A stretch of DNA of 64,000 nucleotides, from the NCBI RefSeq assembly GCF_013122565.1, contig NZ_CP053258.1; one strand, given 5' to 3'. The DNA comes from Escherichia coli. Lineage in GTDB: Bacteria > Pseudomonadota > Gammaproteobacteria > Enterobacterales > Enterobacteriaceae. Positions 42,001 to 60,000 of this stretch are shown here, piece by piece; position 1 is the first letter of the stretch; each line of letters begins with the position of its first letter. Made by a program: the position numbers.

Positions 42001-45000
42001 TAGAGCGGATAAGATGCGTTTCCAGATTGACTTATCCTCACTAAAGGATAAAACTGATAATATCCCCTTAAGCGGATAAATTTGCTGTGGACGTATGACA
42101 TGATGAGCTTTCAGAAGATCTATAGCCCAACGCAATTGGCGAATGCAATGAAACTGGTTCGCCAGCAAAATGGCTGGACGCAGAGCGAGCTGGCGAAAAA
42201 AATCGGCATTAAGCAGGCGACAATTTCCAATTTCGAAAACAACCCTGACAATACCACGCTGACGACATTTTTTAAGATATTACAGTCGCTTGAACTCTCA
42301 ATAACGCTATGCGACACGAAAAACGCTGCGCCAGAATCAACTGAACAGCAAGATCTGGAGTGGTAATGCCTAAACTTGTCACGTGGATGAACAACCAGCG
42401 GGTAGGTGAGTTAACGAAGCTTGCCAACGGCGCGCACACCTTTAAGTATGCGCCGGAGTGGTTAGCCAACCGTTATGCAAGGCCGTTGTCACTTTCGCTG
42501 CCATTGCAGAGGGGGAATATCACCTCTGATGCCGTATTTAACTTCTTCGATAACCTGTTACCCGATAGCCCGATTGTACGTGACCGGATCGTAAAACGTT
42601 ATCATGCTAAATCCAGACAACCGTTTGATTTATTGTCAGAAATAGGGCGAGACAGCGTTGGTGCCGTGACGTTAATACCCGAAGACGAAACCGTAACGCG
42701 TCCGATAATGGCATGGGAAAAGCTGACTGAAGCCAAACTTGAAGAAGTATTAACGGCTTATAAAGCAGATATCCCGCTAGGCATGATTAGAGAAGAAAAT
42801 GACTTTCGCATCTCGGTTGCTGGCGCACAGGAGAAGACAGCACTGCTCAGAATAGGCAATGACTGGTGCATTCCGAAAGGAATAACGCCGACGACGCACA
42901 TCATTAAATTACCGATTGGGGAAATCAGGCAGCCCAATGCGACGCTCGATCTCAGCCAAAGCGTTGATAATGAGTATTACTGTCTGCTGCTGGCGAAAGA
43001 ACTTGGGTTGAATGTTCCGGACGCAGAAATCATTAAAGCGGGAAATGTGCGCGCGTTAGCGGTCGAACGTTTTGACAGGCGTTGGAATGCTGAGCGAACG
43101 GTTTTACTTCGCTTGCCACAGGAGGATATGTGTCAGACATTCGGTTTACCTTCATCGGTGAAATATGAATCAGATGGAGGCCCAGGCATCGCGCGGATCA
43201 TGGCTTTTTTGATGGGGTCCAGCGAGGCGCTGAAAGATCGCTATGATTTTATGAAGTTTCAAGTGTTCCAGTGGTTGATTGGCGCAACGGATGGCCATGC
43301 AAAAAACTTCTCCGTATTTATTCAGGCTGGCGGCAGTTATCGGCTCACACCATTTTACGACATCATTTCGGCATTTCCGGTCCTTGGCGGTACGGGAATA
43401 CACATCAGCGATCTCAAACTGGCAATGGGGCTTAACGCATCCAAAGGCAGAAAAACGGCAATCGATAAAATTTATCCGCGACATTTTCTGGCGACAGCAA
43501 AGATGCTGAAATTCCCGGAAGTGCAGATGCATGAAATACTAAGTGGCTTTGCCAGAATGATTCCGGCAGCACTGGATAACGTGAGGACTTCATTACCGAC
43601 AGATTTCCCGGAGAACGTGGTGACGGCAGTTGAAACCAATGTGTTGAGGATGCATGGACGGTTAAGCCGAGAATACGGTAGTAAGTGAGATATGGGGTTT
43701 GGTCGTTGTTAATGAGCACGAATCATGACCGCCAATGGCTGGATTCTCCCTTGATTTATGTTGGTGCGCATAATGTATATTATGTTAAATTGACTGCGGA
43801 AGTCCTTTACTTCACCATTCACTCTACATACAGATAAATCAATACGTTGTGATTTATGACTTCCCTCCCGTTTCTTTTGTTAGGTTCATTATAGGGAATT
43901 CAAGATATCTATGTTTGGAAGCTCCACGCAGTAGCAGCCGGTGCGGTGGCTCTCTATGCCCGCCCTGTCTTTCATCCGTTTGCCCGTCAACATAAAGGTA
44001 TTACCGCCTTGCCCGGGTGGATGTCCAGCCTGCAGGGAAGCCCGGTGACCCTCATCGGTAATGTATTCCCGCTTGTTGTCAGTCTGAACAGTGTTCTTTT
44101 GTAGTGGCCAAGTAATATTGGACACTACAGAAGTGAGGGCCGGCATATTATCTGAAGCTGTATTTTATCCCCAGCGCTCCGGAGATAGCATTGCTCCCGT
44201 GACCTCCTGCCTGATATGCGACTCCGCCATTCACTGACAGATTTTGAGTAATCACCCCATCAATACCTGTCTTTATCTCTCCCTGATTTCGGCCACCTGA
44301 CAACAACTGGCTGTCACCACTCATTTTAACACCAAATTCATGAGTGTTATGGATCCAATTTGCCTCTATATACGGACGGAACTCCCGCCCGGTATCCTTA
44401 TCCAGGGTGCTTTTCACATTCCAGGATGCACGAATACCTGCTTTTGTCTGAAGATTATTTTTCCCAGTGCCCTGTACCACAGTTCCGTTATCTTCCTGAT
44501 GTGTATCCGGAGTAACCCCCATCCAGATAGCCTGCAGATGAGGCTGTAACCAGAATTCACCTTTAATTCCCTCAGGTGACGTCCATGTATGCACATTCAG
44601 GTTATACCCTCCGCCCACGGAAGCGGTTAAACCATTCAGGTTATATTTTTCTTCTTCCAGCCCGTCGCCTTTCACTGATGCATTAAACCAGTTATATTGC
44701 ATCCAGGTTTCAGCAAAGAGGCCTGTTGCATTTGCCCCATTCTGATACCAGGTTCCGTATAACCCGGCCGAATAACCATCCAGTGTATTTCTGGCCCGTT
44801 TCTTACTCGTGTGGTTTATCGTTTTACCTTTTGCGTTTGCATAGCCACCCATAATGCCCAGGGTAAAGTCACCCAGTTTTTCAGCGTGGTATTTATAAAT
44901 GTCCCCTCCAAGTTGATTGATAAATTGATTGGTTGTTGTTTTATTTTGCCCATCACTAAGCTTACCAGAGGTTCTTCCGCCCGTAATCTTCATCCACACA

Positions 45001-57000: not shown

Positions 57001-60000
57001 CTTTACTCAAATGGGCGATCGAGAAGCGACGTGGAAAACAGGCGGGGGTCGCAAGCGACTGACCCGCACACTCTTACCTCTATACATAATTATGATAAGG
57101 CAATGGAGCAACCTCAATGACTCAACAACCATCGCGTACCGGCACGTTCGGCGCAATACTCCGTGTTACCAGCGGTAATTTTCTCGAACAGTTCGATTTT
57201 TTCCTGTTTGGTTTTTACGCTACTTATATCGCAAAGACGTTTTTTCCTGCCGAAAGTGAGTTTGCCGCATTAATGCTTACTTTTGCCGTTTTTGGCTCCG
57301 GCTTTTTAATGCGCCCTATCGGGGCCGTGGTATTGGGTGCATATATCGACAGAATTGGGCGACGGAAAGGGCTGATGGTTACCCTGGCGATTATGGGCTG
57401 CGGCACGATGCTCATCGCCCTCGTTCCGGGTTATCAGACTATCGGCCTGCTGGCCCCTGTACTGGTCCTGGTGGGGCGTCTGCTACAGGGATTTTCTGCT
57501 GGAGTCGAACTGGGCGGCGTCTCTGTTTATCTTTCTGAGATCGCCACACCAGGCAATAAAGGCTTTTATACCAGTTGGCAATCGGCCAGCCAGCAGGTGG
57601 CGATTGTGGTCGCCGCGCTGATCGGGTACGGTCTGAATGCCACGCTGGGACACGATGAAATCTCCGAATGGGGTTGGCGAATACCGTTCTTCATTGGCTG
57701 CATGATTATTCCGCTGATTTTTGTTCTGCGACGTTCGCTTCAGGAAACTGAAACCTTTTTACAGCGTAAACACCGTCCGGACACCCGGGAAATTTTTACC
57801 ACCATTGCTAAAAACTGGCGTATTATCACTGCGGGAACCCTGCTGGTGGCGATGACGACCACGACATTTTATTTTATTACCGTCTATACCCCCACTTACG
57901 GGAGAACGGTGTTGAACCTGAGCGCACGTGATAGTCTGATCGTCACTATGCTGGTAGGGATTTCTAACTTTATATGGCTGCCGATTGGCGGCGCGATCTC
58001 TGACCGGATTGGGCGTCTCCCGGTGCTAATGGGCATCACCTTACTCGCCATCGTCACCACCTGGCCGGTGATGCACTGGCTTACCGCTGCACCTGACGTC
58101 ACCCGCATGACACTGGTGCTGCTCTGGTTCTCGTTCTTTTTTGGGATGTATAACGGTGCAATGGTAGCAGCCCTGACAGAAGTGATGCCGGTTTATGTCC
58201 GAACCGTGGGTTTTTCGCTGGCCTTTAGTCTCGCCACGGCGATTTTCGGCGGCCTGACACCAGCCATCTCCACTGCATTGGTCCAGTTGACAGGCGATAA
58301 AAGTTCTCCTGGATGGTGGCTAATGTGCGCTGCGCTGTGCGGGCTCGCCGCGACGACAATACTGTTTGCTCGTCTCAGTAGTGGTTATCAGACAGTAAAA
58401 AATAAGCTCTGAAACGCAAGCAGGCAGAGATATATGTCTGCCTGCTTTCTCCAGTGCGCCGTAAACCGTGGGCAGCGTGGCACGGGAGTTACGTCACCGG
58501 GCTCTATGCCAACAGTTCAGTGAGTTCGCCGGCGCATCGATGGCTGGTTATGCCAGCAATGTTCAGAGGGAAGAATATTCGTGTGATCATAGCTTGCTTA
58601 TTCCTTGCCTGGGTTAAATTTTCAGACGGCTCAATCCATAAAACCGGTGACTGGGATTAACGTAAGTACGCCCTCTTTCCATCAACACTTCAGGCAGCTT
58701 GCGGGAATGAGTCCACTCCGGTATCAGAAATGACTATGCCTCAGAAGACAGGCGACTAACGATGTCACCACAGCAGCCTATACTGTCGGTTACGAAAGCT
58801 TATCCCATTTCAGTCGGGAATATTCGCGGATGTTTGGAGAGTCACCTAAGAGAGATATTGCCAGATTAAGAAAGTCTGTCGATCAGCTTTAATAAACCCT
58901 GCATTTATCTGGTTAGAGCAATTTGGCGTTAGTTTCAGCAAGCAAACATTAACCATAGCTAATGATTTTTAGCTATATAAACCATTAGTAACTCTTGACC
59001 TTTCCTGACACTTCCCTTGTTCGCAATAATATTCTGTTTAGTCGCTGTTTATAAATAACATGCATAATGAAATCGTCATGTTATTTAGCGACATAAAATG
59101 TCTTTGCAAATACTCTCTTCAATAAGTGCAGCAATAAACTTGTTGTGGATAGGTGTCCTTGTGATTTAAAGATATTATCGTTCTTCGTGAAATGTAATAA
59201 CCCTGGAAACTATATTCTCAGGGCAACAGCCAATCAAGAATGATTCTTGTTTTATAAGCAATAACAGAATGACTTAATTGTTAACTCTCTTTATTCAGCT
59301 ACTTAAATGTAAATTTTGGAGAATTATGAAACTCAAACATGTCGGTATGATTGTCGTTTCTGTGTTGGCGATGTCGTCTGCTGCGGTAAGTGCAGCCGAG
59401 GGTGATGAATCAGTAACGACCACTGTTAATGGCGGTGTTATTCATTTTAAAGGTGAAGTGGTAAATGCCGCTTGTGCGATTGATTCAGAATCAATGAACC
59501 AAACGGTTGAACTGGGGCAGGTCCGTTCTTCTCGCCTGGCTAAAGCGGGTGACCTCAGCTCCGCCGTTGGCTTCAATATCAAGCTGAATGATTGTGATAC
59601 CAATGTTTCCAGTAATGCAGCTGTTGCATTCCTGGGTACTACTGTCACCAGTAATGACGATACGTTAGCGCTGCAGAGTTCAGCGGCAGGCTCTGCCCAA
59701 AATGTCGGTATCCAAATTTTGGACCGTACGGGGGAGGTATTAATACTTGATGGTGCCACTTTTAGCGCTAAAACTGACTTGATTGATGGCACGAATATAC
59801 TGCCGTTCCAGGCTCGTTATATTGCTCTCGGGCAGTCAGTAGCTGGTACTGCAAACGCAGATGCGACCTTCAAAGTTCAATATCTATAATTCTATCTTAA
59901 GGTGGCTATACGTCATCTGAAAATGAAACAGGGTGTGTGTGGCATGGCTACGCACACCCGAGCAATTCACCAATGTGAATCTCATTATTAATGAGGAGTG

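Follow-up and report, generated by a model that had tools for sequence, protein, structure and literature searches.

Gene content and borders of the island

We analysed a 64,000-nt stretch of Escherichia coli DNA (NCBI RefSeq assembly GCF_013122565.1, contig NZ_CP053258.1), hereafter the window, whose positions supply all coordinates given here without a locus label, and describe the DNA that separates hipA from the yneL remnant there, beside the recombination site dif. In BLAST comparison with K-12 MG1655, backbone homology stops at 43790 and restarts at 58701 in the yneL remnant and at 62427 in ydeT, leaving 43791-58700 (14.9 kb) as extra DNA; in K-12, where the order is hipA, 208 bp, yneL' and ydeTSRQ, only those 208 bp separate the corresponding points. 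Our reading, to which we assign a probability of roughly 0.7, is that this segment is a composite accessory island, specific to its lineage and no longer mobile, in a hypervariable slot between dif and yneL at the replication terminus. A preliminary description of the same DNA had placed an extra segment of about 15 kb at 43689-58732 and had given the K-12 layout as hipA, the yneL fragment and ydeQRST; the comparison with MG1655 agrees with both.

Backbone homology ends at 43790 because positions 43763-43790 (plus strand) form a perfect dif. Its sequence, GGTGCGCATAATGTATATTATGTTAAAT, comprises the XerC arm, a 6-bp centre and the XerD arm, matches the published dif of E. coli K-12 (bioRxiv 10.1101/568105) at 28 of 28 positions and is the only perfect 28-bp dif in the window; adjacency of dif and hipA has been reported before (PMC5638614). 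The first base of the island, 43791, is the base after the XerD arm; the preliminary description, correct in recognizing a real segment, had overlooked dif as its left border. Cumulative GC skew reaches its maximum at dif. To its left lie three matS sites (1963, 12319 and 34059) and, about 20 kb away, a TerC-like core (GTTGTAAC) at 23623 on the minus strand, as well as FtsK-orienting polar sequences (KOPS) on the plus strand at 28815, 39997 and 40777; the single KOPS to the right (56691, within tcuB) has minus-strand orientation, so that all of them point towards dif. The site is essential for chromosome segregation through dimer resolution, and the DNA around it is regarded as constrained.

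Every open reading frame (ORF) of 80 aa or more was classified by NCBIfam profile scans with curated bit cut-offs, and the names and starts of several island genes were taken from the Prokaryotic Genome Annotation Pipeline (PGAP) annotation of strain CP52E, which holds a 99.8% identical copy. Directly behind dif lies a conserved motif of about 100 bp (43791-43888, plus strand), with the core GATAAATCAATACGTT..GATTT.TG...TCCCTC.CGTTTC defined by alignment, followed by a spacer (43889-44099) that is present in window-type genomes only and contains an 85-aa ORF without an NCBIfam match. A solo putative terminal inverted repeat of the insertion sequence (IS) family IS3 (44100-44125, plus strand; TGTAGTGGCCAAGTAATATTGGACAC) forms the left edge of the aah-aidA block, in which aidA (44148-47735, minus strand) encodes an intact AIDA-I-type autotransporter adhesin (NF033176, 2438 bits against a cut-off of 1200) and aah (47750-48910, minus strand) an autotransporter O-heptosyltransferase of the Aah/TibC type (TIGR04414, 602 bits against 200). 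Behind it stands an IS3-family fragment (49128-49604, minus strand) made up of a terminal repeat (49128-49153) and the C-terminal part of a transposase. The sugar cassette then comprises genes for a GPH-family glycoside:cation symporter (49656-51071, minus strand; TIGR00792, 308 bits against 231), a GH5 glycoside hydrolase that PGAP names 'cellulase family' (51122-52207, minus strand; Pfam PF00150) and a LacI-family repressor (52393-53400, plus strand; NCBIfam LacI-family matches).

The last module, entirely on the plus strand, consists of tcuR for a LysR-type regulator (53509-54435; so named by PGAP in CP52E), tcuA for an FAD-dependent tricarballylate dehydrogenase (54533-55936; NF006130, 786 bits against 369), tcuB for a 4Fe-4S membrane protein (55923-57062, start as annotated in CP52E; NF011607, 708 bits against 524) and tcuC for a tricarballylate/proton symporter (57117-58412; NF011656, 727 bits against 445). 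A degraded right junction (58413-58700), of which 88 bp at 58578-58665 are shared with strain TW10590, leads into the yneL remnant (58656-58892, plus strand), the 3' part of an AraC-family regulator gene that PGAP annotates as a pseudogene in CP52E.

Orientation and composition differ among the modules, as had been proposed earlier: aidA, aah and the GPH and GH5 genes are read from the minus strand and lacI and tcuRABC from the plus strand, and the G+C content is 44.1% in aah-aidA, 53.3% in the IS fragment, 50.1% in the sugar cassette and 54.1% in tcu, with 43.4% in the right flank. The earlier count of four modules holds for aah-aidA, the sugar cassette and tcu, but not for the IS3 'module', which is a scar at the aah-aidA edge and not a functional unit. 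Except for this IS3 transposase fragment, the NCBIfam scan found no recombinase or integrase among the island ORFs of at least 80 aa.

Modules and their separate relatives

AidA combines a TIGR04415 strand-loop-strand repeat, found in 15 stretches, with a TIGR01414 beta-barrel, and measures 1195 aa as against 1287 in the AIDA-I family model. The aah gene lies 14 bp upstream on the same strand, and from their family membership the two are predicted to produce a glycosylated self-associating adhesin. Positions 44128-49127 are 95-96% identical to the plasmids p48B2a and pLD39-1. Like the plasmid-borne locus, the pair described here is intact, and it scores above the NCBIfam cut-offs; unlike the plasmid copies, it is chromosomal and stands beside dif in an island that also bears tcu.

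Exactly where plasmid homology ends, at 44128 and 49127, the block is abutted by the two putative IS3-family repeats (44100-44125 and 49128-49153), which are in direct orientation and 81% identical (direct repeat D9), and on p48B2a and pLD39-1 an IS3-family element likewise starts at the equivalent of 49127. The left repeat, which we take to be a probable IS3-family end from its likeness to the IS911 left end, interrupts the terminator hairpin of aidA, a structure that both plasmids have in full. On the right, the fragment 49128-49604 is 87% identical to ISEc31-like elements and carries the PGAP label 'IS3 family transposase, incomplete' in CP52E. As regards a composite transposon, the block has no more than a solo repeat of 26 bp to its left and a fragment of 477 bp to its right; both read as left ends in direct orientation, and no target-site duplication was seen. 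The search for direct repeats at module borders, which the preliminary description had recommended, returned this pair around aah-aidA and none at the outer borders of the island. The spacers between the motif and aidA show no similarity between the window and pLD39-1. We also considered whether the ORF at 43889-44146 is a duplicated barrel C-terminus that recombined in CP52E, and rejected this on the grounds of mismatched offsets, microhomology of 2-5 bp and the lack of a family match.

The LacI-GH5-GPH trio is conserved in chromosomes of Enterobacter asburiae and Silvania, with 76-79% nucleotide identity over 49751-53390, and the closest homologues of the GH5 protein (80-84% identical) come from Silvania, Enterobacter, Klebsiella and Scandinavium. 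No dif site was found within 10 kb of the trio in the E. asburiae and Silvania loci. In the window the cassette starts 51 bp from the IS fragment, and the lacI stop codon lies 5 bp before the tcu unit, which opens with the tcuR promoter. As judged from the families of its products, the cassette is predicted to serve the use of a beta-glycoside.

TcuA, TcuB and TcuC are equivalogs above curated cut-offs and stand in operon order with their LysR regulator; the operon is intact, as is the tcuRABC of Salmonella, from which the present copy differs in its chromosomal setting next to dif within an island bearing aah-aidA; growth on tricarballylate is the function predicted from these families. With unit limits of 53406-58577, set from TW10590, the ETEC4079 plasmid and P393-F10, the module is 95.8% identical to the enterotoxigenic E. 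coli (ETEC) plasmid, the P393-F10 chromosome and TW10590 and 92% identical to IncFII plasmids; tcuRABC as such occurs on IncF, IncHI and ETEC plasmids. TW10590 carries tcu at the same chromosomal locus, followed by the same 88-bp segment and yneL remnant, and has neither the adhesin nor the sugar genes. On ETEC and IncHI1 plasmids, an Xer-like site (AGTGCGTATAAGATGGATTATGTTAAAT) and then the ~100-bp motif precede tcuR, a combination present on 118 PLSDB plasmids. As each module is also found on its own, on plasmids, in TW10590 or in Enterobacter and Silvania, the proposal that functionally unrelated modules form a mosaic of the stepwise type is supported.

A 45-bp match of 53406-53450 to the F plasmid was at one stage read as a Tn3-family terminal repeat; it is a tcuR promoter remnant next to Tn1000. 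The F plasmid (EMG2; L026 2501-2545) and many F-like plasmids carry this tcuR promoter/5' remnant beside the Tn1000 end, from which it follows that IncF plasmids once carried, or still carry, the tcu operon. Separately, 32 bp that follow the motif closely on its right in flanks of the tcu type (L010 3869-3900) recur at 100% identity in more than 2,000 PLSDB plasmids, including pO157.

Distribution and movement within E. coli

Among 5,426 complete E. coli genomes, none carries 80% or more of the segment. About 70% of it occurs at this locus, with 99.7-99.8% identity, in six genomes (CP52E, UTME-7, VE-T9, wlxctx60, LHM10-1 and ET201), and the sugar cassette is confined to these six. The empty arrangement, in which hipA, dif and yneL' are contiguous, was detected by a junction probe in 3,087 genomes (57%), the remaining 43% being without it. 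The preliminary description had called for such a survey of the hipA-ydeT interval and had allowed that the region would be ancestral backbone if most E. coli shared it; since most genomes lack this content and the empty site is the commonest state, the segment is accessory DNA.

All six relatives have lost parts of aidA and aah and kept the sugar and tcu genes intact. In CP52E, UTME-7 and VE-T9, positions 44006-44771 and 46051-49339 are absent, with 2-5 bp of microhomology at the CP52E deletion junctions; ET201 also lacks 46051-49339, and there about 43791-45334 is replaced by an IS1-bearing segment. Because the adhesin genes are inactivated by deletions or IS1 in every one of them, these relatives are decay products and the window represents the intact, older state of an island whose adhesin module is decaying, which suggests that selection on the AIDA-type adhesin is relaxed, or acts against it, in these hosts. 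The exact AidA protein together with the full arrangement was found in a few draft or read-derived assemblies, including Logan SRR11451224 (100% identical) and GCA_018578885.1.

The island has moved between E. coli backgrounds, since carriers diverge by about 2% in the left flank and by 0.1-0.2% in the island. In the comparison with CP52E, divergence drops from 2.5%, measured up to 43720, to 0.19% starting at dif; with GCA_018578885.1 the change falls near 42650, within hipA, and breakpoints thus differ with each pair. Movement by homologous recombination in the flanks is the mechanism we infer. On the right, identity of the yneL remnant to the allele common in E. coli is 87% between 58701 and 59000, as against 96-99% further on, and this divergent allele was probably imported together with the island. 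The right junction is short of about 830 bp relative to TW10590, the missing DNA being a prlF remnant, the GTTAAAT repeat discussed below and 208 bp of backbone. With no recombinase and with the right-hand GTTAAAT lost, the island should be immobile.

To the left of the island the backbone holds hipB (42100-42366; NCBIfam HipB equivalog, also named by PGAP in CP52E and K-12) and hipA (42366-43688, plus strand; NCBIfam HipA N-terminal domain, likewise named by PGAP in both). Further left, an ECSE_1600-family autotransporter is intact at 36457-41877 (1806 aa), its K-12 counterpart being the pseudogene yneO. Behind the yneL remnant, an F9-type fimbrial operon with major subunit, chaperone and usher is intact at 59327-63653; K-12 lacks 59150-62426, which accounts for its ydeT truncation, and CP52E and VE-T9 show an IS3-mediated deletion in the F9 region. 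Its identity to the corresponding DNA of other E. coli reaches only about 96-97%.

The dif flank as a hotspot with alternative cargos

At least five alternative cargos occupy the dif-yneL interval across strains, as expected of the recombination hotspot that had been postulated. To the right of dif there is no cargo in K-12 and EC9, an 8-kb cluster of LysR, aldo-keto reductase and quinol monooxygenase genes in THO-008, remnants of LysR and short-chain dehydrogenase/reductase (SDR) genes in SCU-112 and AR_0017, a recombinase-bearing defence element followed by tcu in TW10590, and the adhesin, sugar and tcu modules in genomes of the window type. Two probes run across the species showed the break at the last base of dif (query position 400 in the empty-junction probe and 150 in the motif probe) in most sampled genomes that deviate from the query; in a few, similarity ends at the first base of dif. 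Flanks that break at the last dif base include the common empty type, the motif and its variants, and the end of the recombinase element (TTAGTCCGTC).

The motif adjoins dif in 925 of the 5,426 E. coli genomes, and also in Kosakonia pseudosacchari and Enterobacter vonholyi, where the DNA to the left of dif is unrelated. Copies from Kosakonia, Enterobacter, Citrobacter, E. coli TW10590 and plasmids are 97-98% identical, identity between allele types is about 77-91%, and the cargo behind the motif is different each time; the copies compared lie at 43791-43888 of the window and at L016 9406-9521, L018 442-532, L009 3754-3869 and L014 3630-3716. An Rfam scan of 43000-60000 at E <= 1 returned no match, and the motif is not a known RNA. 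In E. vonholyi, dif, motif, cargo and yneL-homologous DNA follow in the same order, with a full-length ORF of 318 aa over the yneL-homologous DNA, 5 kb from dif; this arrangement implies that the neighbourhood of dif and yneL is old and that the interval between them turns over.

The sister strain VE-T9 carries a 17.5-kb element between dif and the window-type island (L028 16400-28501 and L025 1-6010), with genes for two tyrosine recombinases of 466 aa and 516 aa, a 788-aa protein, CBASS-like functions, an HNH nuclease, a restriction enzyme and an SDR. In TW10590 this element stands ahead of the tcu motif (L015 872-30020). Its 516-aa recombinase is very widespread, and in 10 of 10 sampled contexts (L029-L038), with differing left-hand genes, the element stands directly after a dif-type site; this site has 0-3 mismatches to dif, all in the XerC arm, in nine contexts, and the tenth (L032) has nothing recognizable of it but the centre and XerD arm. 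The element ends in ACTCAACATAAGTTAAAT.

The heptamer GTTAAAT, which forms the outer part of the XerD arm, is repeated at module junctions of TW10590, THO-008, VE-T9 and pLD39-1. At the right junction, ACTCAACATAAGTTAAAT is followed by CATGTCTGAG in TW10590 and CCCAGAATAGTTAAAT by GGAATTTGAG in THO-008, whereas at the right end of the VE-T9 element ACTCAACATAAGTTAAAT is followed by CGACTGCGG, the start of the motif. The empty allele equals dif followed directly by CATGTCTGAG, that is, dif plus the sequence that comes after the right-hand GTTAAAT. The right-hand sites read ACATAAGTTAAAT or AGAATAGTTAAAT and not TTATGTTAAAT; their centre-proximal bases are ATAAG or AATAG as against TTATG in dif. 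Since GTTAAAT alone is common to both junctions, the exchange must be placed in the outer XerD arm and not at the 6-bp centre cut by XerC/XerD, and the junction sequences do not support canonical XerCD exchange as the origin of these alleles. A reading of GTTAAAT as an integron attC core (GTTRRRY) was likewise rejected, there being no inverse core or palindrome of attC length upstream of the junctions.

In strain 50579417, a SIR2 gene and an ISNCY-family transposase lie directly left of dif, with the break at the first dif base (L008 2630-5435; L010 3600-3752; L027). The other end of this block is an inverted Xer-like site, GGTTCGCATAA-TGACG-TTATGCTAAAG, and the ISNCY end sequence ACATTAGCATTGAGCCTCTA also abuts the Xer-like site on tcu plasmids, which suggests either ISNCY insertion targeted at Xer sites or a unit resembling a dif module.

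Origin of the island

The island as we read it would have arisen by the joining of three separately circulating modules, the plasmid-type aah-aidA pair, LacI-GH5-GPH and tcuRABC. The adhesin pair is bracketed by putative IS3-family ends, and the solo IS repeat, the IS fragment and the 5-bp gap between lacI and tcu mark internal joins that are best read as IS-mediated or illegitimate. Site-specific elements would enter preferentially right after the XerD arm, crossing over within GTTAAAT, and the slot could be a hotspot also because dif itself cannot be damaged; the finished island may then have spread by homologous recombination in its flanks. Site-specific entry next to dif is evident at related loci, and neighbouring alleles are what connect it with this island: a scan for XerD-arm-like 28-mers at and near the right border (58400-58800) found no second dif-like site, no second GTTAAAT lies there, and the island has no recombinase, so that for this island such entry is inferred and not shown. 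Other observations also weigh against our reading. No intermediate E. coli genome, for example one with sugar cassette and tcu and no trace of aidA or IS, was found, which leaves the order and place of assembly unproven and would fit a composite that stems from a donor. That breaks fall exactly at dif could be due in part to selection against dif damage combined with few ancestral events, and KOPS polarity in the island, with one permissive and no non-permissive site, involves too few sites to mean anything.

Assembly could instead have taken place elsewhere, in another Escherichia clade or an enterobacterial genus with dif and yneL as neighbours, the composite then entering in one step by homologous recombination anchored in dif and the motif on the left and in yneL/fimA on the right. 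This is possible, and we would bet against it. The divergent allele of the yneL remnant (87%, against 96-99% further right), the tenfold fall in divergence from CP52E at dif and the matching order of dif, motif, cargo and yneL-homologous DNA in E. vonholyi would all fit, as would the fact that every E. coli carrier has either the full composite or a decayed form of it; yet aah-aidA is 95-96% identical to E. coli plasmids with IS ends exactly at its edges, the nearest relatives of the sugar cassette are 76-79% identical and not beside dif, and no donor genome with the composite was found. Such an origin alters the place of assembly and not the modularity of the island. We think it improbable that the island is a true IMEX (an integrative mobile element that exploits Xer), a circle integrated at dif by host XerC/XerD: it does lie against a perfect dif, on the XerD side, and has no integrase gene, and an ETEC or IncHI1 plasmid with tcuRABC beside an Xer-like site and the motif could recombine with dif, but the right border has no second dif-like site, centre exchange would leave the chromosomal TTATGTTAAAT at right junctions, which related junctions do not have, and the internal joins are IS or illegitimate scars. 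That the segment is ancestral E. coli backbone, with K-12 and most strains as deletion derivatives, is very improbable. Past loss at the locus is indicated by the 5' truncation of yneL in every E. coli allele seen, and the empty allele resembles a precise loss between two GTTAAAT repeats; the prevalence figures given above nevertheless refute it, other occupied alleles hold unrelated genes, and the modules differ in G+C content and have their nearest relatives on plasmids or in other genera.

Within the composite, dif-adjacent island that we favour, a more specific proposal is put forward tentatively and is, in our judgement, rather doubtful: crossovers of a site-specific integration system that spans genera and is distinct from canonical XerCD may have GTTAAAT as their core. 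The system would be served for instance by the element with two recombinases and the 788-aa protein and would stack modules immediately right of dif in Enterobacteriaceae; the island would be the fossil of one member of an array of this kind, and the motif part of the attachment or control region.

Significance and comparison with known systems

The island carries ordinary strain-specific cargo, namely an adhesin, a sugar cassette and a catabolic operon for a rumen acid, and its position matters more than this cargo, as the dif flank is variable despite its presumed constraint (43% of genomes are without the empty arrangement). Should a dedicated pathway of integration lie behind the GTTAAAT pattern, modules for defence, virulence and metabolism would have in dif a general landing pad throughout Enterobacteriaceae, and plasmid modules beside Xer sites, such as tcuRABC, would have a direct path into the chromosome. 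No specific description of the dif-flank hotspot or of the island in E. coli was found in the literature searched, which consisted of open-access texts only, and an earlier description is possible.

Neither an integrase gene nor flanking att repeats, the marks of a classical integrase-type island, were found. The closest formal parallel is with IMEX at dif, represented by the CTX, VGJ and TLC phages of Vibrio and the gonococcal genetic island (GGI; PMC5357621): in both cases integrase-less foreign DNA stands against dif, a functional dif is kept on one side, and arrays can form by repeated entry at dif. IMEX, however, are flanked by dif and another dif-like site, with recombination at the centre of dif, whereas the island has no second site and related junctions point to GTTAAAT, and for these reasons we do not file it as an IMEX; its cargo is moreover an IS-scarred patchwork, not a phage or a type IV secretion system island. 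EludIMEX-1 and EcloIMEX of the Enterobacter cloacae complex are similarly enterobacterial, chromosomal, non-phage in cargo and associated with proposed Xer-type sites, but they lie between setB and yeiP and not at the terminus dif, with imperfect XerC/XerD sites at both junctions (PMC8790168, PMC12198106).

The pdif modules of Acinetobacter (PMC12907356, PMC5790767) resemble the present case in that Xer-bounded modules move between plasmid and chromosome, tcu being found by an Xer-like site on plasmids and by dif on chromosomes; they differ in having paired, complete, inverted XerC/D sites, as against one complete site, the only one in the window, and direct repeats of 7-18 bp here. The VE-T9 element, which lies outside the window, shares with Gamma-Mobile-Trio (GMT) islands two tyrosine recombinases plus a large protein, defence cargo and a repeat-containing target site; it matches GmtY only weakly and below threshold (E = 0.003, 17 bits, the cut-off being 340), and GMT islands have not been reported to target dif (bioRxiv 10.1101/2023.03.28.534373). 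Set against these systems, the island belongs to a familiar class, that of mosaic accessory islets at a chromosomal hotspot, and the dif flank is its interesting part.

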